The position numbers and the translations under genes were made by a program. 38,287 nucleotides of DNA from a virus. Lineage: Duplodnaviria; Caudoviricetes. Below are positions 1,084 to 16,615 of the stretch, in pieces. The stretch is from the IMG/VR virus record IMGVR_UViG_3300017785_003577, positions 1 to 38,287 of that record; one strand, written 5' to 3'. Within the stretch, counting starts at the first letter, position 1. Every line of letters starts with the position of its first letter. The notes beneath the pieces were generated by a model. It searched no databases. It saw only the letters and a program-made list of their open reading frames with translations, and was not told the DNA's origin.

Positions 1084-1091
1084 TATTTATA
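1084..1091 (-). promoter_or_regulatory. T4-type late promoter TATAAATA
   Basis: Perfect consensus on the minus strand, overlapping the portal stop codon, 19 nt upstream of the ATG at 1064. Confidence 0.8.
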
Positions 1092-2760
1092 ATATTCGTT
1101 TCAGTTTCACCAATGTATTGGTTTCTTCTTTAACACTTGACTTGGCGGCCGCTTGTTGGGCCAATTCTGCCTCATGCTCTTGGTCTAACGGATGTTGTGG
1201 TTGTGATGGTACTTGTGACATCATTTGTGCTTGCGCCACATCATTGGTCACACCAACTGGTAATCCAAGACCTGCTTCTTTTTCTTCGTCCATCTCAATT
1301 TGCATCTCTTTAATATCATCATCATTTAGACGTAGAACATTTCTTTGAATCCATGATTGAGAGAAATAACGACCAGTATATGGGTCGATTGTTGCCAACA
1401 GAGCCAATCTTTCTTTCATTAATTCGGCATCTTTGAGTTCAGTAAAGTTATTATCTTTAATGAAATCATAGTGAATGTTAGTTCTAAAATCTTCCCATTC
1501 TTGGTCTGTACAAATACCTTTTAATACACATTGTATCCGTAACGCTTGGTCAAATAAATCAGAGAAACGATTACGTAAACGGTCTACAAATTTAGCAAAC
1601 TTTAATTCGTCACGGGTAATCTCATTGGTGCGACCAAGAGAAAAACCAGATGTTTCTGGATTCAAACGAGATACAGGAACATTTAGTGCCTTGTATAGTT
1701 TCTTTTCAAAGTATTTGACATCTTCCAACTCACCTAGATTTTGACCACCAGGTAATGTAGTAATCTCTGTACCTTTTCCACCTTCACGGCGTGGTAACCA
1801 GAAATCTTCCATCATGGATAAAAATTTACGGTCATCACGGACTTCACCTGTGTTGGCATCGTATACAAGTTTATTTTTGTATTTTACCATAATGTCACGA
1901 AGGTATTGTTCTGCCTTTAACTTAGGTAAATTACCCACGTCAATATAGAAAATACGGCGTTCAGGTGCACGTGAGATACGATAGATAACAGTTGCATCTT
2001 CAATCATGCGTAACTGATTGAGTGGTTTAATTGCTTTGTGTAGATATGATAGAACTACAGCACGGCGAGAATCCATTAAACCAGAAACCACAGAGATAAT
2101 AGAATCAGTAGTAATACGAACACCAACAGGACCAAAATTAGAAGAAGTACCAGTGTTAACTTTGTCGTTATACAGATAATACTCATTAATTACCTTCATA
2201 ACTTCTACGCCAGTGCGCTCATCTTTTGTTTTTTTCATCTCACGTATTTTACGTAACTTACGTGGATCAACGTATCGTAATTCTTTAACACCTTCCATAG
2301 GTTTGGTTTGATCCACTATGATGTGGTAGAATAGGCGACCATCAACATAGTACCTACGGAAAATATCTTGTGCCATATTTTTATAATTCAAAAGTTTCAT
2401 TACTGTTTCAAATTCAGTTTTAATGGCATTTTTAATTTTGTCTGGTTGTTTTAAATCGTCCAACACGATTTGAAGAATCTTACCATCATCATCTTGGCAA
2501 ATTGCTTCACCAACAATATCATCAATAGCAGATTCAATTTCTGGCTGCATTGCCATTTCACGGTAACGTGAGATAAGTTCTACATCATTTTTTGCTGTGC
2601 CGTCAAGGTCAACGTATGTTCCATAATAAGCGGCTGAGGTAATTGTGAGAGCGCCATCATCGTTTGACGGAGGCGTAAAAGATTGTTGCACCGTTTGGTC
2701 ATCTTCGACCTTATTTCGTGCAATTGTGAAACCAAAAAGAGAGAATTTATTAGCTGCCAT
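1087..2760 (-). CDS. gp20: Portal vertex protein (T4 gp20 family)
   Basis: Motifs YRISRAPERRIFYIDVGNLPK, EDFWLPRREGGKGTEITTLPGG, ITRDELKF; follows the tail tube gene. Confidence 0.98.
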   Translation of the reverse strand: MAANKFSLFGFTIARNKVEDDQTVQQSFTPPSNDDGALTITSAAYYGTYVDLDGTAKNDVELISRYREMAMQPEIESAIDDIVGEAICQDDDGKILQIVLDDLKQPDKIKNAIKTEFETVMKLLNYKNMAQDIFRRYYVDGRLFYHIIVDQTKPMEGVKELRYVDPRKLRKIREMKKTKDERTGVEVMKVINEYYLYNDKVNTGTSSNFGPVGVRITTDSIISVVSGLMDSRRAVVLSYLHKAIKPLNQLRMIEDATVIYRISRAPERRIFYIDVGNLPKLKAEQYLRDIMVKYKNKLVYDANTGEVRDDRKFLSMMEDFWLPRREGGKGTEITTLPGGQNLGELEDVKYFEKKLYKALNVPVSRLNPETSGFSLGRTNEITRDELKFAKFVDRLRNRFSDLFDQALRIQCVLKGICTDQEWEDFRTNIHYDFIKDNNFTELKDAELMKERLALLATIDPYTGRYFSQSWIQRNVLRLNDDDIKEMQIEMDEEKEAGLGLPVGVTNDVAQAQMMSQVPSQPQHPLDQEHEAELAQQAAAKSSVKEETNTLVKLKRIL

Positions 2761-2778
2761 ATTGTGTTATTCCAATTC

Positions 2779-2813
2779 AAAAAAACATAATGAGAGAGAC
2801 CTTGGTCTCTCTC
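2779..2813 (-). terminator. Rho-independent terminator after the tail tube gene
   Basis: Minus strand: GAGAGAGAC-CAAG-GTCTCTCTC, a perfect 9-bp stem (2792-2813), followed by ATTATGTTTTTTT. Confidence 0.7.
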
Positions 2814-2828
2814 GTAAAATAAAATAAA

Positions 2829-3371
2829 TTAACTTGTTGTATCTGTTTCCCACCATTGATATGCGAATGTTACTGCGTATTCTTCAATAGTGTCGTTAGA
2901 ACCCCAATCTAAATCAATGGGGGCCAGATCAAGTGGATACAATCCAACAAATTTGTAAGTTTTCAATGTGTCGCCAGTTTTTCCATACTGTGTAACTAAT
3001 GCATCTACGGTATAACCAGATGGACCAGCTGCAGCACCTGTACGGACATTGCCTGCGTGACTATTGATGCCGTTCATCCACGATTCTAAAGCTCTACGAA
3101 TTGTGAAATCTTCGTCATTAATAATCTGTAATGTCCAATCAGCAAACTGTCGATTACCAGCAAATTTTAATTCTCGGCCAAAATAAAATAATGGTACTTG
3201 GCCAATTGTTGAACCAGGCAACTGAGCAGTTTTGGCCATAAATGTGGTTTTCTGACCGGCTGCTGTGCCATTTTCTGCAATTGTTGGAAAAGTGAGCGTG
3301 ACTTGAAATAAATTGGGACGTGCACCGTCACCAATCAGATTTGCTCTAAATTCTGCTACGTTGAATGCCAT
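2829..3371 (-). CDS. gp19: Tail tube protein (T4 gp19 family)
   Basis: GARPNLFQV, AQLPGSTIG, GRELKFAGNRQFADWT, IEEYAVTFAYQWW; 180 aa; synteny. Confidence 0.96.
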   Translation of the reverse strand: MAFNVAEFRANLIGDGARPNLFQVTLTFPTIAENGTAAGQKTTFMAKTAQLPGSTIGQVPLFYFGRELKFAGNRQFADWTLQIINDEDFTIRRALESWMNGINSHAGNVRTGAAAGPSGYTVDALVTQYGKTGDTLKTYKFVGLYPLDLAPIDLDWGSNDTIEEYAVTFAYQWWETDTTS

Positions 3372-3393
3372 TTGTTTTCTCCTATATCGTGGT

Positions 3394-3401
3394 TATTTAT
3401 T
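3394..3401 (-). promoter_or_regulatory. Late promoter AATAAATA for gp19
   Basis: NATAAATA overlapping the sheath stop; AGGAG SD downstream. Confidence 0.7.
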
Positions 3402-5112
3402 AAGCTGCACCAACGACTTCAGTAAAATCAACACCAGTTCTTACTGCAACAAAGTTCAACTGGATAAAGTTGATAGAACGAGCAGGTTTAATATAAATGT
3501 CACCAACAAACTGGTTGGAATCAATAACTTGCCCTGTATTATTTGTTGTATCACAAACAACACGGAAGTCATAGATACCACGGCGACCTTGAATATCACG
3601 AAGGAACGGTGTTACTAATGCTACAAACTGAGCACGGGTAAATTCATCATTAAATTCAAACAATGAATACTGAGCAGCTTGAGCAATTGTTTTTTCTAAC
3701 ACAATAAACAACCTACGGACATTGATACGGTCAAAAGCAGAAGGTTTAGTTTGTAATGTTTTGTCACCATACAATACCGTGCCATTTCCTGGGAATGTGG
3801 CCACAGGATTTACGCCTTGTGCATACAGAGTATCTCTATTTGTTTTGGTTGGATTCCATGCTAAACGCACAACGTTCTTTAGATTGCCACGATTGAAACC
3901 GGCAGGTGAGAACCATGGATCACGAACATTGTCGGTGTTAACACAAAGACCGGCAATATCACCGTTCAATGGTATCCAACGATAAATGTTGTTGTATTTG
4001 TCAAACATATATTTCCAACCAGAATCAGCAACAGCATAAGATGTAGAACGACCAAGAGCTGTGTTCCATGCTGTAATATTGGTTGTTTCATTACCAGCTT
4101 GATTGATAACGTTAGCAGAAGGAGGCGAAATAAATGCCAAACAATCTTTACGAGCACCAGCAATATTGTCAATTACATATTGTTGAGTAGCAATGTTGGC
4201 ATCACCAGTTAATACTAAAGAAATATCAACTTCATCAGCATTTTGGAATAATCCATAAGCTGTTTGTGTATTTGCTGTAGATGGAGCATCATCTGCGCCA
4301 CCACTTAAACCCAACAAAGGTGGTGTAGTAAATACAAAATATGTTGTATTTGCCAAAGGTCTACCCCATGTGTTTGCTTCGAGGCCGGTTGGCAAAGGAT
4401 CAACGGCATAAATGAATTTTGAATTATTAAAAATTACATTTTTATAATAATTAGAATTGCCTAAAGCATCAATAGCATCTGATCCTTTTGACAGATATGG
4501 AAAAATTTCTAATACTGTGTTACGAACACCTGTAAACAAACCGCCGGTGTCCATAACAATAAAATGTAATTCATCGTTAGTTGCGCCAGCCGCTGTAGCT
4601 TGAGCTGAAGTGCCTGGAGCTCCGTTAAAATAAGAAGAAATACCAATTCCATTAATATTCCATGTGGAAAAATTTGATCCTGCGTCTATCAAAGAAACAG
4701 TCAAAGAATTTCCTAAACCACCAGAATATCTGGCAAAAATTGGACCAGCAGCAGAACCAGCGGTGCCAGTTAAATAGGCTGCCTGAAATACATCTTCATT
4801 TGGAATCTGTAAAGCTGTACCGCTTGTATTGGCACGAGCATTACGGCCAGCGGAACCAACGGCACGAGCAACAGTTAAGTTATTACCATAAGCTAAGAAA
4901 GAAGCAGCAGTAAAAAATGATGTTGCTGAGTTGCTGTCTGGTGTACCAAATACACTTGCAAGAGTAATCTCGCTATCTACTTGAATTCTTTTTTGTGCTG
5001 GACCCCATTTGAAATTTCCAGCAAAAGCACCGGCTGTAGTTAGTACTGAAGGTACGACTGTGGTTAAGTCAACTTCAGATACATTTACGCCTGGAGAGAT
5101 TTGAAATGCCAT
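3400..5112 (-). CDS. gp18: Tail sheath protein (T4 gp18 family)
   Basis: N-terminal SPGVNVSEVDLT; C-terminal PWFSPAGFNRG, FDRINVRRLF, FEFNDEFTR, IYIKPARSINFIQLNF. Confidence 0.98.
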   Translation of the reverse strand: MAFQISPGVNVSEVDLTTVVPSVLTTAGAFAGNFKWGPAQKRIQVDSEITLASVFGTPDSNSATSFFTAASFLAYGNNLTVARAVGSAGRNARANTSGTALQIPNEDVFQAAYLTGTAGSAAGPIFARYSGGLGNSLTVSLIDAGSNFSTWNINGIGISSYFNGAPGTSAQATAAGATNDELHFIVMDTGGLFTGVRNTVLEIFPYLSKGSDAIDALGNSNYYKNVIFNNSKFIYAVDPLPTGLEANTWGRPLANTTYFVFTTPPLLGLSGGADDAPSTANTQTAYGLFQNADEVDISLVLTGDANIATQQYVIDNIAGARKDCLAFISPPSANVINQAGNETTNITAWNTALGRSTSYAVADSGWKYMFDKYNNIYRWIPLNGDIAGLCVNTDNVRDPWFSPAGFNRGNLKNVVRLAWNPTKTNRDTLYAQGVNPVATFPGNGTVLYGDKTLQTKPSAFDRINVRRLFIVLEKTIAQAAQYSLFEFNDEFTRAQFVALVTPFLRDIQGRRGIYDFRVVCDTTNNTGQVIDSNQFVGDIYIKPARSINFIQLNFVAVRTGVDFTEVVGAA

Positions 5113-5165
5113 TTTATTATCTCCTTGAATATGATGTTATATTGGCAATTAAGATACCATACGAA

Positions 5166-5173
5166 TATTTATG
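5166..5173 (-). promoter_or_regulatory. Late promoter CATAAATA for gp18
   Basis: NATAAATA in the gp17-gp18 gap; AAGGAG SD before the ATG at 5112. Confidence 0.7.
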
Positions 5174-5184
5174 AAAGGCCATAT

Positions 5185-6864
5185 TTAGAGATTTCTCATA
5201 GCGTCTTTAATAAATTTTGAATATAGTTCGGAACCATCGGCAACTTCCCACAAATCTCCGTCCATATTTTCATACCGTTCACCCAGTCCGTCATCAATAA
5301 TTGGAGCCGGAAGAACTTCTTCATCTAACTGATTCATATTTTCTAACTGAATCTGTTTACGAATATCATGGTTTACGATGTCTTTAAAGTATTTTTGAGT
5401 GGCCACCCAAGCAAAAAGTACCAAAGTCATTACTAAATCATCATTATTATCATCTTCTGCAGCAAATGATGTTTTACTTGCCACAAAAGTTGTCAGTTCC
5501 GAGATGGTATCAAAATCTGGAATTAACAACTTATCACCTTCAATCAATGTTTTTAAATTAGAACAACCAATTCTTTTGACCGCCACAGACATTTTAAGGC
5601 CCATCTGTATGCCTCGGCCAAATCCACTATGCAACTGCTGTGGTTTTTTGTTTCCTGTAAATACTTTCCAAAGATTCTCATACTCTAAATCTTGGTGTAT
5701 GATGTCGGCTACCTGTGGATTGTTATTAATTTCAACCAAAATATAGGCATCATTATAATACCGAGCGGCATTGTGAATAACCGTAGGGAATAATATGGGT
5801 GAAATTGAAGAACTCTTATACACTGCCACCTGTTTATATGGTGTTGATGAAATATCAAACACAGAAAATGCTGAACAGTCTAAATTACGACCTTCTGATA
5901 CATCCACGGTAATACAATATAGATGGTCTTTGGTAATTTCATCGTCACCTTTAATCGGATGTTCATAGATTATCATCTTATCATGGTGAGCAATTGGCGG
6001 ACTGTAAGCCATCTTCTGTAACTTGGTGCCAGCAATAAGAGTATTGGTAGAACCTAAAAACTCGGTTTCAAACTCCTGTCGAAACTGGTGTTCAGAAGTA
6101 TTACGAATCGTTTCTTCTTTCCAATCATCATCACGACCCGGTACCATCGACCAATGCACCTCAAATGGTACATAATTGTTTCGTTTATTGATGGCGTCTG
6201 TCCATATCTTATAGAACAGATTCATGCCGTTAGGTGTAGAAACAATAATAATCTTTGTTTTTGTACCAGCAGTAATAACAGGATAAACTGAGGTAAAGAA
6301 TTCTGTGGCAATATTAGATGGTACGAAAGCAAACTCATCTAAGAATACAATGTTAAACGAACCAGAACGAGCCGCAGAAGATGACGTGGAAGAAGCGATG
6401 ATAACTGATCCGTTCTCCAGTTCTATTCGACCTTTGTTCCATTCAACCACACCTTGTTGTAACCACATAGGTAGATTCTCATACGCCAACTGTAACTTAC
6501 CAAGAATACCTCGAGCAGTTTCACCACGGTTGGCCAGAACAGCAATTGATTGTGCGTCTTGAAAGAGTATTGTCCAAAGAAGATACGCCACCGTGGTAGT
6601 CGTTTTACCCACCTGCCGTGGACATTTCATAATAGTAAAACGATTATTGTGAAAAGTTCGTATCATGTCTTGCTGAAAATCATACATTCTAAAATCAGTT
6701 ACACCATCATCTAGTGTGATAATTTTAATGTACTTGGCAAAATAGATAGGATCTCTAGAACACTTGATATATTCATCAACTTGATCTTGTGTGAAATTGA
6801 CTTGAACTCCTACTCGTTTGAGTAGAGGGTTGTCACGGTAACTTTCTTTATTCTTTGCTGGCAT
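5185..6864 (-). CDS. gp17: Terminase large subunit (T4 gp17 family)
   Basis: Walker A PRQVGKTT, Walker B FLDEFAF, coupling motif VSTPNGMN, nuclease acidic residues (VDVSEG, DDLVM). Confidence 0.98.
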   Translation of the reverse strand: MPAKNKESYRDNPLLKRVGVQVNFTQDQVDEYIKCSRDPIYFAKYIKIITLDDGVTDFRMYDFQQDMIRTFHNNRFTIMKCPRQVGKTTTTVAYLLWTILFQDAQSIAVLANRGETARGILGKLQLAYENLPMWLQQGVVEWNKGRIELENGSVIIASSTSSSAARSGSFNIVFLDEFAFVPSNIATEFFTSVYPVITAGTKTKIIIVSTPNGMNLFYKIWTDAINKRNNYVPFEVHWSMVPGRDDDWKEETIRNTSEHQFRQEFETEFLGSTNTLIAGTKLQKMAYSPPIAHHDKMIIYEHPIKGDDEITKDHLYCITVDVSEGRNLDCSAFSVFDISSTPYKQVAVYKSSSISPILFPTVIHNAARYYNDAYILVEINNNPQVADIIHQDLEYENLWKVFTGNKKPQQLHSGFGRGIQMGLKMSVAVKRIGCSNLKTLIEGDKLLIPDFDTISELTTFVASKTSFAAEDDNNDDLVMTLVLFAWVATQKYFKDIVNHDIRKQIQLENMNQLDEEVLPAPIIDDGLGERYENMDGDLWEVADGSELYSKFIKDAMRNL

Positions 6865-7273
6865 TGTTCTTCAATAGTTTGCTGAGTTCAGAAGTTGAGC
6901 CAACAAAAATTGCTTTATCAATATTGGTATTATTTGTTTCTTTTTTAATGCCTTCCATCTCACGCATTTCTTTTTGTATCTTTAATAATCTATCATTGGC
7001 TTCGGTCATGTTTTTTAATAAACCAGAATACACCTCAAATGCTCTTGGGTGTTGGCCAGCTTTGGCAATATTGAGTATTTCTTCCATGGCGTCTTTGCCT
7101 TGGTCAATAATACCTTGAAGATTTTCTTTTGATTGTTGATAAGCATCATTTAAATCTTGTTTAATATCTGCTTCATTATACTTGACGGACATTACAGGTA
7201 AATTTATTTTTTCTTCTTTAACTGTGGGTGTTACGTCAAATATTTGTTCCATGCTTTTTTCAAAATTGTTCAT
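6848..7273 (-). CDS. gp16: Terminase small subunit (T4 gp16 family)
   Basis: HPRAFEV and FVGSTSELSKLL motifs; overlaps the gp17 start. Confidence 0.93.
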   Translation of the reverse strand: MNNFEKSMEQIFDVTPTVKEEKINLPVMSVKYNEADIKQDLNDAYQQSKENLQGIIDQGKDAMEEILNIAKAGQHPRAFEVYSGLLKNMTEANDRLLKIQKEMREMEGIKKETNNTNIDKAIFVGSTSELSKLLKNNASKE

Positions 7274-8265
7274 TATGTATTAGGGAATTCTGTTATTGTG
7301 GTGGTATATGTATAATCAACGTTGGCGTTTGCAGTATTTGCTGTGGTAGGATTAGGCACAATTGTAATTGTGGCCATTTTTTCTGCTGGTACAACGTAAG
7401 AAGTGAACTGATAATTTGAATTTGTTTTTGTGCCTATAATGCGTGCATCGGATACAAAATTACCCTGTATGTTGGTCAAGTGTAATATATTATTAGTCCA
7501 CAAAATAACTCGACCAGATGCCGTAGATTCTTGTGCTGAATAACCTTGATACACAATTTCACCAGTTTGATATGTTCCTGTACCGGTGTTGGCCATATTA
7601 AATTGAACAACATCAGTTGATAAAATATCGTTATATATGTTTGTAATTGAAGTTCTAATTTGACCTGTTTGTGTAGTTTTACCAAACACATAACCTTTAA
7701 CAGTAAAACTTAATGTCCAAATAATCATACGAGTTTCGGAATCTTTATCACCTTCATAAACAATATCATGTGATGTGCTATTTAATACAATAGGTATTTC
7801 TTTAACAATACCCATTTCAGGAATTAAATTTAATTTAATTGTATAATCTGGTGCAAAGAACGGTAAAATATGCTCAATGATTTGTGTACCATCTTCTATG
7901 TTTCGTACATAGATGTAAAGATTAAAATCAAAATTATATGGTACAGGATTATATTGTGAAATTAATCCAGTAGTTGTTTGTGCAAATTGTTTAAAATTAG
8001 TATTTTGTTTACGAGAAGAATCGTAAGAAAGACCGGCCATTTCAAAAGACATTCTTGGTAATGCTATTTGAATTTTTTTATCTAAAGTTGGATCATCGTC
8101 TAAACGTCTTACATATAATTCCTTTGTTGCATACACAATAGGTACCAACATACGTTCAGCTTCTGTTAAATCTGGATTATAACGAACTAGGGTAATATTG
8201 TCGAATAGGTTACCAAACCCAATAACCATCTTTCGAATAATTCGGTTATATGAAATATTGGCCAT
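7273..8265 (-). CDS. gp15: Tail sheath stabiliser / tail terminator (T4 gp15 family) with an extra C-proximal domain
   Basis: FGNLFDNI, LPRMSFE, PVPYNFDFNL, QIIEHILPFFAP, IIWTLSFTVKGY. Confidence 0.93.
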   Translation of the reverse strand: MANISYNRIIRKMVIGFGNLFDNITLVRYNPDLTEAERMLVPIVYATKELYVRRLDDDPTLDKKIQIALPRMSFEMAGLSYDSSRKQNTNFKQFAQTTTGLISQYNPVPYNFDFNLYIYVRNIEDGTQIIEHILPFFAPDYTIKLNLIPEMGIVKEIPIVLNSTSHDIVYEGDKDSETRMIIWTLSFTVKGYVFGKTTQTGQIRTSITNIYNDILSTDVVQFNMANTGTGTYQTGEIVYQGYSAQESTASGRVILWTNNILHLTNIQGNFVSDARIIGTKTNSNYQFTSYVVPAEKMATITIVPNPTTANTANANVDYTYTTTITEFPNT

Positions 8266-9158
8266 TAAATTTCTCCAAATGGATTAGTTTCAGAGAAATC
8301 TATAATTGCGTCTGCTTGAGTATTAATATACTTATTGTCATAACTTTCATTATAAGAATTATCTAGTTGTGAATCATAAGAAGTTAATATGTAACGTGCA
8401 TTACTTGATGCACCAATAATTACAACATTGTTTGTAAACGTACCAGAAATATTGCTGATCATTAAAGAATTGGCCGATGGTGTCCAAGCTTGTACGATTG
8501 CCACACAAGTAGCATTGGCTTGAGTTTGGTCGGCTGCCTGATATACTGTTTCGTTTATTGTATAATTGATTACGTTACTAGTTTTTGCTCCAGTAACCAA
8601 CTTAATCATGTAACCAGAATCACTAACAATCATATCAATATCGTTAACACCAGTATCGATAATCTCTTGAGCATACTTGAATTTCTCAAGACGCAACTCA
8701 TAAAAATATGGTTCTTTACGACCTAACATATGAAAATCTTTTGCTTGTTCCGTAAATGTTATTTCATATAATTCACCAGTACCATTTAAGAATGGCACAT
8801 AAACCAAATCACCTTCTCTTGGACGTGTAAATGTATTTTGTGGAACTCGTTGTTGAAATGACCTACGGGAAACAGATACCGTCACCACATTTTTAATTTC
8901 TAGGCCAAACTTAGAAAAGAACTCTTGTTGACCTTGGTAATCCATTACGTCACCAGAAAGGTACATTTCTAATGGAAAAGCTGATTTGAATTTTTTAACT
9001 GGATCTTCACCATATAATATATCTCTATCTGCCGGATTTTCTATAGGCAAATAGAATGCATCAAAACCCATGATTTGCATGGATTCAACAATCAGATCCT
9101 CTATTACTCTTTGTTCGGCAGTAGAGTTGTAGTTATTAAAATATACACTTGTTGGCAT
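8265..9158 (-). CDS. gp14: Neck protein / head closure (T4 gp14 family)
   Basis: EQRVIEDLIVESMQIMG, FFSKFGLEI, RPREGDLVY, terminal DFSETNPFG. Confidence 0.94.
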   Translation of the reverse strand: MPTSVYFNNYNSTAEQRVIEDLIVESMQIMGFDAFYLPIENPADRDILYGEDPVKKFKSAFPLEMYLSGDVMDYQGQQEFFSKFGLEIKNVVTVSVSRRSFQQRVPQNTFTRPREGDLVYVPFLNGTGELYEITFTEQAKDFHMLGRKEPYFYELRLEKFKYAQEIIDTGVNDIDMIVSDSGYMIKLVTGAKTSNVINYTINETVYQAADQTQANATCVAIVQAWTPSANSLMISNISGTFTNNVVIIGASSNARYILTSYDSQLDNSYNESYDNKYINTQADAIIDFSETNPFGEI

Positions 9159-9159
9159 A

Positions 9160-9933
9160 TTAGTTCATCATAAATTCTAATGGAGCACCATACTCGTTTT
9201 GCATTTCAGTTTCCAGCTTTTCAATTTCGCCTACCGCTTCTTCATAAATCTTATCACCATTAAGTGTGACACCACCCGGTAATTGTAAGCCAGAAAACTT
9301 TTTGAGGTTGTTTCCCCATGTTCGTTTGAATAGTGCCGTAGTATATTCTTTCAACCATCGGTCATTCCATACTCGATTATATTCTGTGGCATCAATACAA
9401 GCATAACATTCGGCAACTACAATTGTACCAGCAGGAGCTTCGGATGCTCCCCATGCCCAATCAATAAAGAGTTTTCCCATATGTCGTTGGAAACGAATAG
9501 GAACTTCTCCACTAAACATTAATTCCAGTGAACGTAAGTGTTGTTGTGTTAGAGTATAGTTAACGTAAGATGCGGAGGTAAAGTCGTAGAGTTCGTTTAG
9601 ACGGAGTTGATACCGCAGGTCAAACATATTAATAGTTGCCTGAGAATCTTGGACTGGGAAAATACGAGTAACGCCAACAATGTCCAAAGGAACATTGGCA
9701 GAATCTAACACATTGGTTAAATCCAAATATTGATTATTGACATCGGCATCCGTAACCCTTCGGATATAATAGATTTTTTGTAGACCATCAAAGTGGTAGT
9801 CTTGCCAATATTGAATGGCATCATCTATTCTATCTTCTAACTGGTCATCATCAATATTGATTTCAATGACAGGGAAACCTAATCTTCTTAAACAGTAATC
9901 TTTTAAAGTTGCTCTACTTGTTACGGCCGGCAT
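9160..9933 (-). CDS. gp13: Neck protein / head-tail adaptor (T4 gp13 family)
   Basis: LKDYCLRRLGFPVIEINIDDDQLEDRIDDA, WLKEYTTAL, WGNNLKKF, LPGGVTLNG. Confidence 0.95.
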   Translation of the reverse strand: MPAVTSRATLKDYCLRRLGFPVIEINIDDDQLEDRIDDAIQYWQDYHFDGLQKIYYIRRVTDADVNNQYLDLTNVLDSANVPLDIVGVTRIFPVQDSQATINMFDLRYQLRLNELYDFTSASYVNYTLTQQHLRSLELMFSGEVPIRFQRHMGKLFIDWAWGASEAPAGTIVVAECYACIDATEYNRVWNDRWLKEYTTALFKRTWGNNLKKFSGLQLPGGVTLNGDKIYEEAVGEIEKLETEMQNEYGAPLEFMMN

Positions 9934-10342: not shown

Positions 10343-11176
10343 TTAATTAAGACCCAACTCTTTACGAATCTTTGTAGCGGAGATTGAGTGTGTTTCATCA
10401 TCAAATGTTTCTTGTTCAATTTTGTAACCCACATCACGACCATAAGTAATATTTACAATGTTTGGTACCACCTGAATCTCGTATTGTCCTTGATAAATTG
10501 GATCTAAATCACGTTTAATATAAGATTTAACTTGTTCAATGGCAAACGGATTAGAACCTTGCCATCCTTGGCAATCTCGAATCTGAATAACTACTTGACC
10601 GGTTTTAGCAATGGATCGGTCAAACAATGCTCGATGACCTTCATGCCATGGTTGCCAACGACCTAACATCTGTACTGTTTCTTTTTGCCAATCAAATGTT
10701 GGCCGCCTACGATTTTCAATAATATGATTACCAATAAACTCAGCCCACTTTTCAGCATTCTGTTCGGTCACACGAAAGTCATATACCTCTGGTGGAATAA
10801 AGGCTTTGTTAGTATCTTCAAAACGACCTTTGTCAATGGTGTCCATCCAAATAGTCCAATCGGCCTTGAAGTTGTTTCTCATCTCCACCAATGGTGCCAC
10901 AAAATCACAGATAACATAATCACCACCAGCCTCTAAAGCAAACTGTGCCATTCTTAACGATTGACGAATACGACCAGTATCAGTAAAATCCCAATCGTTG
11001 TATTTTTTACGAACTTCATCAGCATTGAACCAAGTAACTTGAGCATTAAAACCTGTGATAGGTAACATCTCAGCATTACTATTTGTCGTACCGTTTTTTT
11101 CAAGATACTTCTTTAATGCTTCCGCCATAAATGTTTTACCTGAACCAGGTAATCCCATAATCAAAATCTTTTTCAT
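10343..11176 (-). CDS. Fusion of an adenylylsulfate-kinase (CysC)-like P-loop domain and a HIGH-family nucleotidyltransferase domain
   Basis: N-half: GLPGSGKT, NADEVR, DFTDTGRIRQSLRM, DFVAP (CysC-like). C-half: LGRWQPWHEGH (HxGH) and terminal SISATKIR. Confidence 0.8.
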   Translation of the reverse strand: MKKILIMGLPGSGKTFMAEALKKYLEKNGTTNSNAEMLPITGFNAQVTWFNADEVRKKYNDWDFTDTGRIRQSLRMAQFALEAGGDYVICDFVAPLVEMRNNFKADWTIWMDTIDKGRFEDTNKAFIPPEVYDFRVTEQNAEKWAEFIGNHIIENRRRPTFDWQKETVQMLGRWQPWHEGHRALFDRSIAKTGQVVIQIRDCQGWQGSNPFAIEQVKSYIKRDLDPIYQGQYEIQVVPNIVNITYGRDVGYKIEQETFDDETHSISATKIRKELGLN

Positions 11177-11186
11177 TTATATTCCT

Positions 11187-11924
11187 TTATTGAGGTTTGC
11201 ATAATAAATTATTTCCAACTACTGTGTAATCATATTCATACTGATTTAAAAATTGTTTGATATCGTCTATAATAGTTTTTCTATTATCACAATGTTCCAC
11301 AAATATAATAGGCAAGTGTTTTTTAATTGTGTTAGAACCTCCAACTAAAACGTCCAAATCCATGCCTTCCACATCTATCTTTAATAAATGTACTTTAGGT
11401 ATATTATAGTGTTCTAAAAACCAATCAATTGTGTGTATGTCAACAACAACTTTATTGTTTGTTTTTTCAGTAATAATATCTTCTACTAAACTAAAAGTAC
11501 CAAAATCATTTTTTCTAAAGTAATTGGGTTCTACGAATTCAATCTTAGTATTTTCTTTACCTAATCCAATGTTGTATGGGTATACATTATATAGATTGTT
11601 TATAGAGGCATTCCCACATAACATTTTAAACACTTCTCTTTGGGGTTCAAAACAATATATTTTTCCCTGAGGAAATGCTCTGGCCATCCAAGTGGTGAAT
11701 GTTCCTATATTGGCACCAATGTCAAATATTACAGGCTCAGAAAATTCTTTAATTGATTCATAACAATTAAATGCTTCTATTGTTGAGGTATTACCATGAT
11801 CCAGTAACCATTGACCGTGGCCAACTTGGTTATCATTGCAATCAAAACGATTTACAATCATCAACCCGTGGTCACAACTCAATAACACATTACGGTGAAC
11901 TTTATCACCTACATTAAATATCAT
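11187..11924 (-). CDS. FkbM-family SAM methyltransferase
   Basis: IFDIGANIG, YCFEPQ, LLKIDVEGMDLDVLVG, PIIFVE. Confidence 0.92.
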   Translation of the reverse strand: MIFNVGDKVHRNVLLSCDHGLMIVNRFDCNDNQVGHGQWLLDHGNTSTIEAFNCYESIKEFSEPVIFDIGANIGTFTTWMARAFPQGKIYCFEPQREVFKMLCGNASINNLYNVYPYNIGLGKENTKIEFVEPNYFRKNDFGTFSLVEDIITEKTNNKVVVDIHTIDWFLEHYNIPKVHLLKIDVEGMDLDVLVGGSNTIKKHLPIIFVEHCDNRKTIIDDIKQFLNQYEYDYTVVGNNLLCKPQ

Positions 11925-11928
11925 AATA

Positions 11929-12531
11929 TTAAAAAATATTTAAATTTTCAAATCTTCCTGGTTTGTGTACTTTAATAAAGATGTTAACCGATTCTGCCAC
12001 ATTTGATAATGTATTAAGTTTATTGTTTAACTCTCCACTACCCAACATACCATTTGCTAATTGTTCTTTCCAATATCCAACAATTTCATACGTTACATCG
12101 TATACCTCTAAGTCAACAGAGTGATATATTCCAAACGTACTATCACTAAATTTCTTTTGAATAGATTCGTGATTTACTTTTTGGTCAAACATCTTAAATG
12201 TTTTGGCAGATAAAGGCCTAACATGGGTGTAATCGTCCCAAAACAAATCACAACGGTGATGTGGAACATTTATAAACCATTCTGCTTGATCGGCACTTAC
12301 TCGATACATTTCTTTAATAACATTGGTAAAAACTTTTGGGTCTTGACCTAGATGTTCTAAGATATTATCTGCTGTAATCTTCTCAAAGAAGTTATCTTCA
12401 TATGGCCATGGAGTTTTTTCAAAGTCTAATACTTCATCAGGATTACATTTAGCTTCCACGTCCACATTCCAATGGTCGTTTAATTTTTTAAACCCACAAC
12501 CCATGTTTAGTTTTTTATGTTCTGGTGTCAT
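11929..12531 (-). CDS. Class I SAM-dependent methyltransferase-like protein (type 11-like)
   Basis: LNMGCG, NVD, PWPYEDN, ILEHL, KEMYRV, VPH...DYTH. Start moved to ATG 12531 (AAGGA SD; avoids overlap with the upstream gene). Confidence 0.82.
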   Translation of the reverse strand: MTPEHKKLNMGCGFKKLNDHWNVDVEAKCNPDEVLDFEKTPWPYEDNFFEKITADNILEHLGQDPKVFTNVIKEMYRVSADQAEWFINVPHHRCDLFWDDYTHVRPLSAKTFKMFDQKVNHESIQKKFSDSTFGIYHSVDLEVYDVTYEIVGYWKEQLANGMLGSGELNNKLNTLSNVAESVNIFIKVHKPGRFENLNIF

Positions 12532-12542
12532 AATATATCCTT

Positions 12543-13340
12543 TTAAATCCAAGCGTTCCAAAATATTTCACGATTGTATTGTTCGTAAATATCAAGTCCA
12601 AGATACTCCACACAGTTAACTGTGGTACGATCCAGTGATGGTTTAACTTTGTGTAAATTAGGTAAACCAATTGCCAAATCATTATAGACTTCTGTTTGAA
12701 CAATCTTTTCAAAGTCATGTTCGTATTTTGGTAATTCTAAAAATTCATAGATTCGTTTTGTTTGACTTTTTGGACTATTGCAAAAACGGTTGTAATCAAT
12801 AAAAAGAAAACGATCCAAGTAACCCATAGTAATTGCATCTTTAATATTTCTATGTGATAAACCCATTGGGCCTTCAGGACCAGCATAGTAATAAGCTCTA
12901 GAAGCAATATTAGACCCTTCTCTTAAAGAAGAATCTGCTTTAGTAAAAAACAAAGGATTATCTTTTCTAAGTTTTTCAAAAGAAGTTAAGATTTCGGCTG
13001 GGTTTCTAACACAAACCACAATTTTAACTTTGCGTTTCAATACTGCTTCTACTTGAGGCAGTAATGGAATCCATCCACGGTCTTTATCAATAACAAAAGG
13101 CTTATCAATATGAGAATAATATCCTTGTAGAACTGATTTTAAAACTCCAACTTTAGCCTCTGTATTATTATATTCTTGATTTGTTTCCATACTGAACCAA
13201 GAAGCATTAATGCTACCAAATATAGAAGATAAAGAACTTACAGATTCTCCGTGAACTTTTGGATTTTGTTTGAGTATATTTGTTATGAGAGTGGAACCCG
13301 ATCTTGGGAGACCTGCCACAAAATGTAGAGTTTTTTCCAT
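12543..13340 (-). CDS. PAPS-dependent sulfotransferase family protein
   Basis: 5'-PSB loop AGLPRSGSTL; DKDRGW; 3'-PB motif VRNPAEILTSF; FIDYNRFCNSP...RIYEFLEL. Confidence 0.88.
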   Translation of the reverse strand: MEKTLHFVAGLPRSGSTLITNILKQNPKVHGESVSSLSSIFGSINASWFSMETNQEYNNTEAKVGVLKSVLQGYYSHIDKPFVIDKDRGWIPLLPQVEAVLKRKVKIVVCVRNPAEILTSFEKLRKDNPLFFTKADSSLREGSNIASRAYYYAGPEGPMGLSHRNIKDAITMGYLDRFLFIDYNRFCNSPKSQTKRIYEFLELPKYEHDFEKIVQTEVYNDLAIGLPNLHKVKPSLDRTTVNCVEYLGLDIYEQYNREIFWNAWI

Positions 13341-13384: not shown

Positions 13385-13392
13385 TATTTATG
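13385..13392 (-). promoter_or_regulatory. Late promoter CATAAATA for the sulfotransferase-MTase-MTase-kinase run
   Basis: NATAAATA overlapping the glycosyltransferase stop, 44 nt upstream of the ATG at 13340. Confidence 0.62.
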
Positions 13393-14434
13393 CGTCTATT
13401 TCCTCAGTTTTTTTAGGAAACAATTCTGCCAGTTCTTTGCCAACTTTTTCAAATGTGTCTGTCCAATCTCCAAACTTTGTTTGTCTAAAAACTTTAGTGG
13501 TGTTTTGATACCAAGGACTGTGGTCTCCACCATAAGCCCAAACATGATATGGTAATATTGGCACAATCACCCAAGTGGGTTTTCCCATTGCAGAAGCTAA
13601 ATGAGCAATACTAGTACATGATGTAATAACTAAATCTAAATTAGCAATACATGCAGCCGTATCTTCCCAAGAAATTATTAAATGTTGAAGGTCATTTATA
13701 CTTTCAGGTAATTCTTTTACATCTGTATCTCTTTGTAAACTATAAAATTGTATATGAGAAAAATCTTTGTGTATATCAATTAATTTTTGAGCGGGAAAAA
13801 TACGAAACTGTTGATGCTCAAAAAGAGGACTACCACTCCAACGAATACCCACTTTTATTTTTTTTGTGTTTAACATTGTTTTCCAAAGATCCACACTTTC
13901 ATTTTTGGCAAAAATGTAAGGATCATTTGGTAAATTATCAAATTCATGTCCAAATAACCAGCTAGCACTAAATCCTGGAATCCAAAAATCATGATATGTT
14001 CTAGACACTTCATCTAAAGTGATACATTCTTTAACACCAGGAATTCGTAGAAATAGTGGGTGTAAAGATTTGTCACAACACATGATACAAGTACCGCCCT
14101 GTTTCCAAATTTCTGTGGCAAATCTTGCATAAATTATTTGGTCACCAAAACCACATTCCATATTCAAAATAACGGTCTTACCTTTTAGATCGCTTTGATC
14201 CCAAATTGGCTTAGTGGTATTAATTTTGCCACTACCATAAACTTTAAGTGCTCGGCCGTGCTCAAGGCATTTAAATCCTTCTTGTAAGTTTCCTTGATTA
14301 ATAAGAAACCATCCACGATTAAATTTGGCTTTTGGATCTGTAGGATCTAAAGCTTCTAGTTCTTCTGCTAGTTTCCAAGCTTCATCAAATCTTCCTCGTA
14401 TCATTAAATTTAGCTGCTGGTCAATCAAATGCAT
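13388..14434 (-). CDS. TPR-containing GT-B glycosyltransferase (GT9/heptosyltransferase-like)
   Basis: N-terminal TPR-like helices (GRFDEAWKLAEELEALDPTDPKAKFNRG); ECGFGDQIIYARF, KVGIRWSG, WEDTAACIANLDLVITSCTSIAHLASAMGKPTW, SPWY. ATG at 14434 has an AGGAG SD. Confidence 0.85.
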   Translation of the reverse strand: MHLIDQQLNLMIRGRFDEAWKLAEELEALDPTDPKAKFNRGWFLINQGNLQEGFKCLEHGRALKVYGSGKINTTKPIWDQSDLKGKTVILNMECGFGDQIIYARFATEIWKQGGTCIMCCDKSLHPLFLRIPGVKECITLDEVSRTYHDFWIPGFSASWLFGHEFDNLPNDPYIFAKNESVDLWKTMLNTKKIKVGIRWSGSPLFEHQQFRIFPAQKLIDIHKDFSHIQFYSLQRDTDVKELPESINDLQHLIISWEDTAACIANLDLVITSCTSIAHLASAMGKPTWVIVPILPYHVWAYGGDHSPWYQNTTKVFRQTKFGDWTDTFEKVGKELAELFPKKTEEIDA

Positions 14435-14458
14435 TCTCAACTCCTATATTATAATTAA

Positions 14459-14479: not shown

Positions 14480-16615
14480 TTATTTAAGTAAAGCAACTGT
14501 ATGAAAGCCGCCAGTCGTTACGTCAGTCCAAGAGCTAGATCCAATTTGTACTGGACTGGATCTATTGGTAGTTGTACCATCTCCTAGTTGGCCCGAACTA
14601 TTATATCCCCATGTAAACAAGGCACCACCAGAACGTATAGCAGCTGTAAACTGACCAGTAGCAGTTCTTACAACCGTCCAGGAACTGGATCCTATCTGTA
14701 CTGGACTGGATCTATTGGTAGTAGTACCATCTCCTAGTTGGCCAAAACTATTACCACCCCATGTAAATAATGTACCACCAGAACGAATAGCGATTGTATA
14801 GTCTTGTCCAGCGCCTACAGCAGTCCATGAGCTAGACCCTATTTGTACTGGACTGGACCTATTGGTAGACCCACCATCCCCCAAGCGTCCAGCATTGCTA
14901 AATCCCCACGTAAACAATCTACCATCAGAACGAATGGCTGCACAATGCGCCAGGCCAACCGATACAGCAGTCCATGAGCTAGATCCTATTTGTACTGGAC
15001 TGGATTTAGTAACAGTTGAACCATCTCCTAATTGGCCTAGACCACCATTTCCCCACGTAAACAATATACCATCAAATCGAATAGCAGCTGCGTTACTTTG
15101 GCCAAAACCCACAGCAGTCCATGAGCTAGATCCTATTTGTACTGGACTGGATCTATTGGTAGTAGTACCATCTCCTATTTGGCCAGAATAATTCTGTCCC
15201 CATGTAAACAATATACCATCAGAACGAATAGCCGCTGAGTTATAAAATCCAGCCGCTACAGCAGTCCAAGAGCTAGATCCTATTTGTACTGGACTGGATT
15301 TAGTAACAGTTGAACCATCTCCTAATCGCCCACTACCATTACTTCCCCATGCGAATAATAAATTATCTGAACGAATAGCAACTGTGTGAAGTCTACCAGC
15401 AGATACAGCAGTCCATGAACTGGATGATATTTCGGTTGGTGAACTTACGCTATTTATTCCTATTGTTATCGGACTGCTTTTACTAGTGGTTGTATCATCT
15501 CCTAAATTACCATAGTTATTATTCCCCCACATAAACAAAGTACCAGTACCCTCAGAACGAATGGCTCCTGTAAAAGCCTGGACTACCCCAGGCTGGCCAC
15601 CAGCAGAAACGGCTGTCCAAGAGCTGGATCCGATTTGTACTGGACTGGATTTAGAGACAAGTGTACTATCTCCCAACTGACCAACACCATTATATCCCCA
15701 TGTAAATAATAACCCATCAGAACGAATAGCAGCCGTATGAGAAGTGCTAGCGGACACAGCAGTCCATGAACTGGAACCTATTTGTACTGGACTGGATCTA
15801 TTAGTAGTTGTACCATCTCCCAATTGGCCACTAGTATTACGTCCCCATGTAAACAAAGTTCCACCAGAACGTATGGCTAGTGTATGATTTTGACCTGCAG
15901 CTATAGCAGTCCATGAGCTAGATCCTATTTGTACTGGACTGGATCTATTAGTAGTTGTACCATCTCCCAATGCGCCGTATCCATTAAGTCCCCATGTAAA
16001 CAAAGTTCCACCAGAACGTATGGCTGTCGTATGAAAGGCACCATTGCGTACAGCAGTCCATGAGCTAGATCCTATTTGTACAGGACTGGATCTGGTGGTA
16101 TTTGTACCATCACCTAATTGGCCAGAATAATTGAATCCCCATGTAAATAACAAACCATCAGAACGAATAGCGGCGGTAAAAGCGGCACCAGCAGCCACAG
16201 CAGTCCATGAGCTAGACCCTATTTGTACTGGACTTGATTTACTAAATCCGGTACCATCTCCTAGTTGGCCCGAACTATTATAACCCCACGTAAATAATGT
16301 ACCACCAGAACGTATAGCAGCCGTATGAGTACCTCCGGCAGCCACAGCAGTCCATGAGCTAGACCCTATTTGTACTGGACTGGATTTTTGAGTAGTTGTA
16401 CCATCTCCTAATTGACCATTGAGAGCTCTTCCCCATGTAAACAATAAGCCGTCAGAACGAATAGCCGCCGTATGCCGAAATCCAGTACTTATTGCACTCC
16501 AACTAAGAAAAGTATTTTTTCCTAATTGCCCACTACTATTGTTTCCCCACGCATATAAAAAATTACTAGGGACAGAAGTACCAGCTTTAGCTAATAGTTG
16601 TTCAATTAATAACAT
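14480..16615 (-). CDS. RCC1/BLIP-II-like repeat beta-propeller protein (14 blades), putative receptor-binding adhesin
   Basis: 13 full ~49-aa repeats SWTAV.AG..HTAAIRSDG.LFTWG.N..GQLGDG....RSSPVQIG plus N- and C-terminal half repeats. Confidence 0.9.
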   Translation of the reverse strand: MLLIEQLLAKAGTSVPSNFLYAWGNNSSGQLGKNTFLSWSAISTGFRHTAAIRSDGLLFTWGRALNGQLGDGTTTQKSSPVQIGSSSWTAVAAGGTHTAAIRSGGTLFTWGYNSSGQLGDGTGFSKSSPVQIGSSSWTAVAAGAAFTAAIRSDGLLFTWGFNYSGQLGDGTNTTRSSPVQIGSSSWTAVRNGAFHTTAIRSGGTLFTWGLNGYGALGDGTTTNRSSPVQIGSSSWTAIAAGQNHTLAIRSGGTLFTWGRNTSGQLGDGTTTNRSSPVQIGSSSWTAVSASTSHTAAIRSDGLLFTWGYNGVGQLGDSTLVSKSSPVQIGSSSWTAVSAGGQPGVVQAFTGAIRSEGTGTLFMWGNNNYGNLGDDTTTSKSSPITIGINSVSSPTEISSSSWTAVSAGRLHTVAIRSDNLLFAWGSNGSGRLGDGSTVTKSSPVQIGSSSWTAVAAGFYNSAAIRSDGILFTWGQNYSGQIGDGTTTNRSSPVQIGSSSWTAVGFGQSNAAAIRFDGILFTWGNGGLGQLGDGSTVTKSSPVQIGSSSWTAVSVGLAHCAAIRSDGRLFTWGFSNAGRLGDGGSTNRSSPVQIGSSSWTAVGAGQDYTIAIRSGGTLFTWGGNSFGQLGDGTTTNRSSPVQIGSSSWTVVRTATGQFTAAIRSGGALFTWGYNSSGQLGDGTTTNRSSPVQIGSSSWTDVTTGGFHTVALLK
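14490..16505 (-). repeat. ~147-bp tandem coding repeats (RCC1 blades)
   Basis: Recurrent plus-strand block cagtccatgagctagatcctatttgtactggactggat at ~147-bp spacing. Confidence 0.92.

Follow-up and report, generated by a model that had tools for sequence, protein, structure and literature searches.

The locus described here raises the question of whether a phage can encode a complete PAPS synthase in a single protein of 277 residues and, if so, what reaction its very small C-terminal domain carries out. In the window, by which we mean the whole stretch of 38,287 bases that was analysed, the candidate PAPS synthase gene (Table 1) is the last enzyme gene in a same-strand run that starts with a TPR/GT9-like glycosyltransferase and continues with a sulfotransferase, a weakly matched methyltransferase and an FkbM methyltransferase. 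Genes for a T4-like portal, tail tube, sheath, terminase and neck lie at 1087-9933, and further virion structural and tail genes are found beyond 20 kb. The original prediction pointed to a 277-aa ORF with the motifs GRWQPWHEGH and SISATKIR, and both are present, on the minus strand. The sulfotransferase at 12543..13340 is likely the consumer of PAPS; against the PDB, it and the glycosyltransferase gave weak matches only.

Table 1. Positions in the window of the candidate PAPS synthase gene, its domains and motifs, and the neighbouring cassette genes
Feature	Coordinates	Strand	Remarks
Two-domain gene, 277 aa, ATG start	10343..11176	-	Candidate PAPS synthase; trimmed APS-kinase relative plus minimal HxGH adenylyltransferase-type domain
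Kinase domain, residues 1-153	10718..11176	-	K14, T15, D53, R56, F64, R69, F119 kept; ~19 lid residues absent
P-loop, residues 8-15	11132..11155	-	
Minimal nucleotidyltransferase domain, residues 160-277 (118 aa)	10343..10699	-	Apparently NadM-derived; predicted strand-swapped dimer
GRWQPWHEGH, residues 172-181	10634..10663	-	G, R, Q, both H invariant 43/43
YGRDVG, residues 245-250	10427..10444	-	At ATP-sulfurylase GRD-loop position by motif
SISATKIR, residues 264-271	10364..10387	-	R271 invariant
Shine-Dalgarno AAGGA, 6 nt upstream of start	11183..11187	-	Overlaps stop codon of upstream FkbM gene
FkbM-family methyltransferase, 245 aa	11187..11924	-	Pfam PF05050 7.5e-25; TIGR01444 over cut-off
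Methyltransferase-like protein, ~210 aa, weak match	11929..12561	-	phrog_6636 5e-9; Pfam 0.089
Sulfotransferase-family protein, 265 aa	12543..13340	-	PF00685 1.2e-15, PF13469 1.4e-13, both over cut-off
TPR + GT9-like glycosyltransferase, 350 aa, weak match	13388..14440	-	Pfam/NCBIfam profile searches

Directly upstream of the cassette, at 14480-16615 of the window, lies a gene for a 711-aa RCC1-repeat propeller protein, relatives of which were seen in 58 of 157 loci. A scan of the window for the T4 late promoter TATAAATA gave 3 matches against 5.5 expected by chance, none of them directly before the cassette; the three matches, at 1084, 10324 and 30692 (minus strand), are all intergenic, on the coding strand and just before genes. 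Sigma-70-like sites numbered 33 in the window, with 30 expected.

The two-domain ORF is not a product of chance, since its family numbers at least 8000 clusters when grouped at 90% identity (all 8000 candidates that were scored passed) and the PHROG 10255 profile matches residues 49-275, across both domains, with an E value of 1.8e-49. PHROG 10255, which is named 'kinase' and includes Xylella phages Sano and Salvo and Stenotrophomonas phage DLP6, represents the same two-domain protein. In 12 of 15 cultured-phage records with a match, at least 80% of the 277-aa protein is covered, with 35-40% identity over the whole length, and the phage records of this PHROG are labelled only 'kinase', 'adenylylsulfate kinase' or 'hypothetical', with no function assigned to the C-domain. 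For the C-domain and its relatives, which we call the mini-transferase, the ESM Atlas returned only 'cytidyltransferase' clusters, and other database labels read cytidyltransferase or phosphopantetheine adenylyltransferase. Existing catalogues list the family, but under the names kinase, cysC or cytidyltransferase only, and no assignment of the C-domain was found in the open literature, which was the scope of that search, subscription papers being outside it. Viral cysC is treated as an APS kinase in the available portions of three reports, where phage cysC auxiliary genes are read as APS kinases of sulfate reduction (bioRxiv 2020.02.13.942896, PMC13584214, PMC13172472).

The N-domain had been described as CysC-like, and the searches agree. 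Pfam APS_kinase (PF01583) matched with an E value of 2.2e-6 and 28.2 bits, over its cut-off of 21.1, and a profile built from the family alignment of 43 sequences, which was also used for the conservation counts, found APS kinases or Sat/APS-kinase fusions in all of its 23 best PDB matches (E 1e-18 to 7e-12). With the AlphaFold model of the 277-aa protein (pLDDT 91) as query, Foldseek placed APS kinases or PAPS synthases at its first 13 ranks. The ligand residues of M. tuberculosis CysC are given as K456, S457, D480, R483, F492, R497 and F576 in the part of the structural report available to us, where lid closure is also described as essential (PMC4373884). When these residues were mapped by motif spacing and printed alignments (5cb6), not by superposed coordinates, the counterparts were nearly invariant in the 43-sequence alignment: the P-loop K14 and the Mg-binding T/S15 (43/43 each), the catalytic base D53 (41/43), the phosphosulfate arginines R56 (43/43) and R69 (40/43), and the adenine-stacking F64 (42/43) and F/Y119 (41/43). 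The N-domain thus has in common with CysC (TIGR00455; M. tuberculosis 4bzp, A. fulgidus 7yq1) the fold and the seven named ligand residues, but a 19-residue gap relative to 5cb6 and to P0250, a CysC fusion described below, deletes the lid with the equivalents of K562 and R559, and NAD replaces DGD. The first Asp of the LDGD motif (D478 equivalent, Mg-water) is N in 31 and D in 10 of the 43 sequences. R118, an Arg or Lys in 34/43, may take over the role of the lost lid lysine. As judged from its sequence, the N-domain resembles an APS kinase in its substrate site, yet it falls far below the curated CysC cut-off (apsK TIGR00455, 20.5 against 138.7 bits).

The C-domain motif had been noted as closer to that of NMN adenylyltransferases, and the best sequence matches of the domain are indeed NadM-type NMN adenylyltransferases (E 1.6e-13). 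Structure comparison, proposed with Sat and NMNAT among the references, sided with the latter: NadM (Z 10.2, rmsd 2.8-3.2, 108-111 residues aligned) and PPAT (Z 10.1) were closest, whereas the likeness to Sat did not hold to the same degree, the best ATP sulfurylase being 1v47 (Z 8.8, rmsd 3.2, 115 aligned) and the others reaching Z 5.6-6.4. Small cytidylyltransferases are also fold relatives (5x3d, Z 8.3; 2b7l, Z 7.8). Residues 4-75 and 110-140 of NadM align to the C-domain, in which the GRxQPxHxGH and NPF motifs of NadM are present, and NadM residues ~76-109 (~34) are replaced by ~9 residues carrying YGRDVG. That segment of NadM is a helix-strand-helix, presumably holding the nicotinamide-stacking tryptophan of the nicotinamide subsite, and no helix is found at residues 238-259 of the phage protein in either model. 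With this segment replaced and the curated NadM cut-offs missed (NF002243, 25.7 against 127 bits; TIGR01527, 24.4 against 181.2 bits), membership of the domain in NadM was rejected. NadM (M. jannaschii 1f9a, F. tularensis 2qjt) is nevertheless closest in both sequence and fold, and the C-domain differs from it further in the change of GS to RD at the end of strand 2, in the sulfur-gene context and in that no Nudix fusion was seen here. The sequence thus suggests that the C-domain descends from NadM-type NMN adenylyltransferases.

Membership in the Sat family was likewise rejected, as the QxRN/RNP sulfate-binding loop is absent from the C-domain, GRxQP standing in its place in 41-43 of 43 sequences, and Pfam PF01747 gave no match at E 0.1. 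CysD (TIGR02039) was not matched among 21 NCBIfam families at the same E 0.1. The C-domain has in common with Sat-type enzymes (PF01747; A. vinosum 4dnx, T. thermophilus 1v47) the HIGH-superfamily fold with the ATP-binding motifs HxxH and ISxTxxR and a GRD-like motif, but it is about one third of their size and its GRD-like loop is predicted to come from the partner subunit. In YGRDVG, the Y, G, R and last G are invariant (43/43), D is found in 32/43 and the position of the Sat His is a Val, the equivalence to the GRD loop being drawn from the motif. A. vinosum Sat binds sulfate via Gln199, Arg201 and Ala299-NH and ribose via the GRD loop, according to the accessible text of its description (PMC3779200). 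Human PAPSS1 (1x6v/1xjq) offers a parallel in layout: its kinase is likewise followed by an HxGH transferase, the fold and the APS-binding residues of the kinase agree, and the proposed overall reaction is the same. Metazoan PAPS synthases had been put at more than twice the length of the phage protein, which is correct for PAPSS1 (630 residues in chain 1x6v against 277); the lid of the phage kinase is ~19 residues shorter, and its 118-aa, apparently NadM-derived domain reaches only Z 6.3 to 1x6v and has no RNP loop. YGRDVG, the kinase lid deletion and the loss of the NadM segment are features beyond the original prediction.

Residues 238-259 are confident in both monomer models, yet have no assigned secondary structure. 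When two copies were predicted together, pairing was seen between residues 240-244 of one copy and 167-170 of the other, and between 243-245 and 252-255; runs agreed in 100% of contacts, with pLDDT of at least 93. The dimer score was 0.92, against 0.01 for the best of 3 controls, and the mark it passed is one that 20 of 30 solved pairs attain, as does 1 of 23 single chains, a calibration that is only rough, as an analysis-specific alignment and ATP were used and likeness to solved oligomers may explain the pass. In the predicted dimer, strand 238-245 would pair with strand 167-170 of the partner and the YGRDVG loop would cross in trans, so the model suggests that the small size of the domain is likely made good by strand swapping.

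The partners to which the mini-transferase is joined are informative about its substrate. In a fusion scan of 36 representative proteins out of 150 listed, the domain was found joined to CysC in opposite orders, in P0153 (233.6 bits) and P0250 (164.6 bits), both above the apsK cut-off of 138.7, from clusters of 7 and 3 members, respectively. Among long metagenome matches to the reversed fusion, 36 of 37 are complete ORFs with HxGH and a full RDxKG lid, and the fetched locus of 7 of these 36 ORFs contains a sulfotransferase. At the SAR11 locus L134, a near-canonical CysC gene is directly before the mini-transferase. Fusions with both trimmed and intact kinases imply that the partner of the mini-transferase is an APS kinase either way. 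Fusions longer than 485 aa gave 1 match among 32 candidates (P0271), the N-terminal part of which has a sulfotransferase-like motif by eye, with no sulfotransferase among the Pfam families listed for it (5 of 11). A small DUF2061 membrane protein is a neighbour in 29 of 157 phage loci (L044:8737-9039, L184:6350-6559), and P0128 seems to be a fusion of it with the mini-transferase.

Relatives of the 277-aa protein, both fused and split, are also found in Pelagibacterales chromosomes, and the domain was found in 0 of 400 other Pseudomonadota genomes in a phylum-wide sample. Among 18 SAR11 stretches fetched by position or discordance, there are five in which a 126-aa gene stands alone ~50 bp before aprM-like-aprB-aprA and on their strand, with no kinase beside it and a product 50% identical to the window C-domain; in three, kinase and domain converge on the apr genes, and in one, the domain is beside a TauE exporter and apr is gone. 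The aprB and aprA genes pass their cut-offs, and the label 'aprM-like' comes from position and a weak QmoC match. The accessible text on A. vinosum places sat in the slot upstream of aprM-aprB-aprA (PMC3779200), so that in some SAR11 genomes a C-domain relative stands upstream of aprMBA as the Sat gene does. Co-transcription of aprM in the SAR11 lineage has been described (PMC2211403, in the part available), and SAR11 is reported to have AprBA and mostly no sat in the sections available of three studies (PMC5069961, PMC3448164, bioRxiv 2022.09.23.509140). The mini-transferase is likely the enzyme reported missing from SAR11.

The distribution of the domain was followed in 151 SAR11 genomes at least 85% complete, with a domain call at E <1e-20 and 6 weak matches counted as absent. 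The domain was present in 122, aprA in 123, Sat in 6, CysD in 7 and the trimmed kinase in 111 (without the unpublished genome G080, domain 121 and aprA 122 of 150). Domain and aprA were both present in 117 genomes, both absent in 23 and discordant in 11 (5 and 6), and none of the 7 CysD-bearing genomes had the domain; Fisher values for this co-distribution are 4e-17 and 5e-6, with kinship ignored, and physical linkage or contigs that are missing may account for the joint loss of domain and aprA. In an rpoB tree built from 57 of these genomes, with none of the 28 submitted or complete genomes of interest left out by choice (G031 and G114 gave no match, and G095 was fragmentary), the state with neither gene required 10 changes, at least 8 of them forced by well-supported branches, a count that linkage and missing contigs may have inflated. 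Mutual exclusion of the domain with Sat was rejected, since 5 of 6 Sat-bearing genomes keep the domain (p=1). Among genomes with a sulfotransferase and without Sat or CysD, the domain is absent in 10 of 79.

The trimmed kinase is accompanied by a C-domain gene in 110 of its 111 genomes. Of the 12 domain-bearing genomes without it, 8 have no match to any APS kinase, and all 8 have aprA; other APS kinases (PF01583) occur in the remaining 4. An absence of sulfotransferases from these kinase-less genomes was considered and rejected, as PF13469 finds 0/12 against 72/110, but PF00685 finds 4/12. SAR11 NadD was full-length in 4 of 5 genomes and over its cut-off in 3. The domain is also found inside glycan-biosynthesis islands at SAR11 loci L006, L011, L012 and L014.

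Several other genes were observed around these SAR11 loci. A pyruvate kinase gene lies within 1-2 genes of the APS kinase, mini-transferase or sulfotransferase in SAR11 islands (L134:4192-6076, L032:7004-9489, L135:4995-8095), possibly for ATP regeneration for PAPS synthesis, and a CysQ-like PAP phosphatase (203.5 bits, cut-off 228.8) is ~5 kb from the module at L009:2328-3107 and also seen at L017. A CADD-family TenA-like gene (L124:3902-4573) and, across deep clades, an unannotated 116-aa gene (L124:8200-8550) travel with aprMBA. At L136:4937-5325 (G020:C1:283937-284325) the mini-transferase is in two frames, from a frameshift or sequencing error, and the CysD matches in four genomes (L142-L144) are open frames of 494-500 aa, longer than usual for CysD.

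Among phages, 157 viral loci were fetched, which left 144 distinct contigs after 13 same-contig duplicates were dropped. The sulfotransferase family of the window was found in 72 of the 144 contigs and in 57 of the 94 with at least 5 kb upstream, adjoining the gene in 12; these loci are close relatives (75-100% identity) and so not independent. A further 11 of the 94 well-flanked contigs have motif-only sulfotransferase-like genes, and no sulfotransferase was found in the other 26. After clustering at 90% identity, 13 of 45 clusters have a sulfotransferase, or 22 of 45 including motif-only candidates. In Sano, a gene weakly resembling a sulfotransferase (E 4e-4) lies two genes upstream and a NADAR gene directly upstream, RSL1 has an annotated Gal-3-O-sulfotransferase, and none was seen in DLP6, which has a second, longer HxGH protein (381-aa frame). 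A PF13469 search of Sano, DLP6, RsoM2USA and RSL1 gave no match. Kinase-only genes occur in RsoM2USA and RSL1, that of RSL1 near the annotated sulfotransferase. A single protein of 567-617 aa combines the sulfotransferase with the TPR-glycosyltransferase in many relatives (e.g. L079:5852-7624), and a second phage cassette around the candidate PAPS synthase gene (L109, L111, L113) encodes a TctC receptor, an unannotated 220-aa protein and two proteins that resemble sulfotransferases by motif only.

Enzymes of the HxGH family catalyse NTP/PPi exchange, and to our knowledge ATP sulfurylase is the only HxGH-type reaction linking ATP and APS. The reading of the C-domain as an ATP sulfurylase follows from the CysC fusions, the sulfotransferase neighbours and the APS-reductase operons because APS is what all three share. 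We consider it probable, at about 70%, that the 277-aa protein is a minimal PAPS synthase whose ATP sulfurylase is of neither the Sat nor the CysD type. A stripped-down, non-canonical ATP sulfurylase was also the favoured inference of the original prediction, and, on sequence grounds, it is now the best-supported reading, with the CysC fusions, the SAR11 sat slot, the co-distribution with AprA and the exclusion from CysD genomes in its favour. Weighing against it are the lack of the Sat sulfate-binding loop, the closer likeness to NadM and PPAT, the deleted kinase lid, the retention of the domain in 5 of 6 Sat-bearing SAR11 genomes and the phage contigs in which no sulfotransferase was recognised. 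The 118-residue C-domain would convert ATP and sulfate to APS and PPi, and the trimmed N-domain would convert APS to PAPS, feeding the sulfotransferase encoded three genes upstream. Sulfate would be held at a site unlike that of Sat, for which R173, R200 and the G250 backbone are candidates, and the unfavourable first step may be drawn forward by the kinase together with host pyrophosphatase. The acceptor of the sulfate is probably, from gene position, a glycan made by the cassette glycosyltransferase, perhaps on fibre proteins. In SAR11, the mini-transferase would run in reverse behind APS reductase, converting APS and PPi to ATP and sulfate.

All of the sulfur-context evidence would fit any role in APS handling, and the C-domain could instead act on APS or PAPS with phosphate or water in place of PPi (as an ADP-sulfurylase-like enzyme or APS hydrolase), or could bind or channel APS, while the kinase draws APS from host CysDN or AprBA. 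The missing sulfate ligands of Sat and the existence of kinase-only phage genes agree with such a role, which we regard as unlikely given the NTP/PPi exchange of HxGH enzymes, the invariant His and Arg motif residues and the absence of the domain from all 7 CysD genomes; moreover, a domain that destroys APS would be self-defeating when fused to APS kinase in both orders. It is very improbable that the C-domain is an ATP sulfurylase joined to a kinase that is dead or works on a different adenylate, so that only APS is made. The lost lid segment with its lysine and arginine, the N that mostly replaces D478 and the low apsK score would be expected of such a protein, but 40-43 of the 43 sequences, a diverse set, retain the P-loop lysine, the catalytic base and both phosphosulfate arginines, and streamlined SAR11 genomes retain the trimmed kinase in 111 of 151 cases, 110 of them with the C-domain gene.

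Two further readings place the protein outside sulfur metabolism. The likeness to NadM, the best match in sequence and fold, and the NADAR gene of Sano could indicate a NadR-like enzyme of NAD salvage or anti-defence, with NMN adenylyltransferase and nucleoside kinase activities. We give this little credence, since the ~34 NadM residues at ~76-109 are reduced to ~9, the kinase is a much better match to APS kinases than to kinases of any other type, SAR11 has NadD and DLP6 a second HxGH protein, and the linkage to aprBA would be left unexplained. The original prediction had also allowed for activation of a sugar or phosphonate for the glycosyltransferase. Such a CTP- or ATP-dependent activation of a small phosphate ester, phosphonate or other oxyanion, with the kinase supplying the phosphorylated acceptor, is compatible with the SAR11 glycan islands, with the cytidylyltransferases among the fold relatives and with the database labels. 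It has been weakened by the stand-alone genes in APS-reductase operons, with no glycosyltransferase found beside them, by the fusion to intact CysC and by the invariant APS-binding arginines of the kinase, and seems equally hard to sustain.

The minimal PAPS synthase remains the preferred explanation, and on balance we favour, with somewhat less confidence, the wider view that the mini-transferase is a third ATP sulfurylase family that arose from NadM-type enzymes and works as a strand-swapped dimer, that it completes sulfite oxidation by AprBA in SAR11 with a yield of ATP, and that with the lid-less kinase it gives thousands of aquatic phages a PAPS supply independent of the host, for sulfation of their own products. 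The ATP sulfurylase types that we know of are Sat and CysD(N). If the reading is true, a third, NadM-derived type of ~120 residues has been invisible to current annotation, and a PAPS synthase of 277 residues might find use in PAPS regeneration. The gap in SAR11, which has AprBA and mostly no sat, would be closed by one small gene, and many phage 'cysC' genes would be complete PAPS makers serving sulfotransferases, not APS kinases of sulfate reduction.
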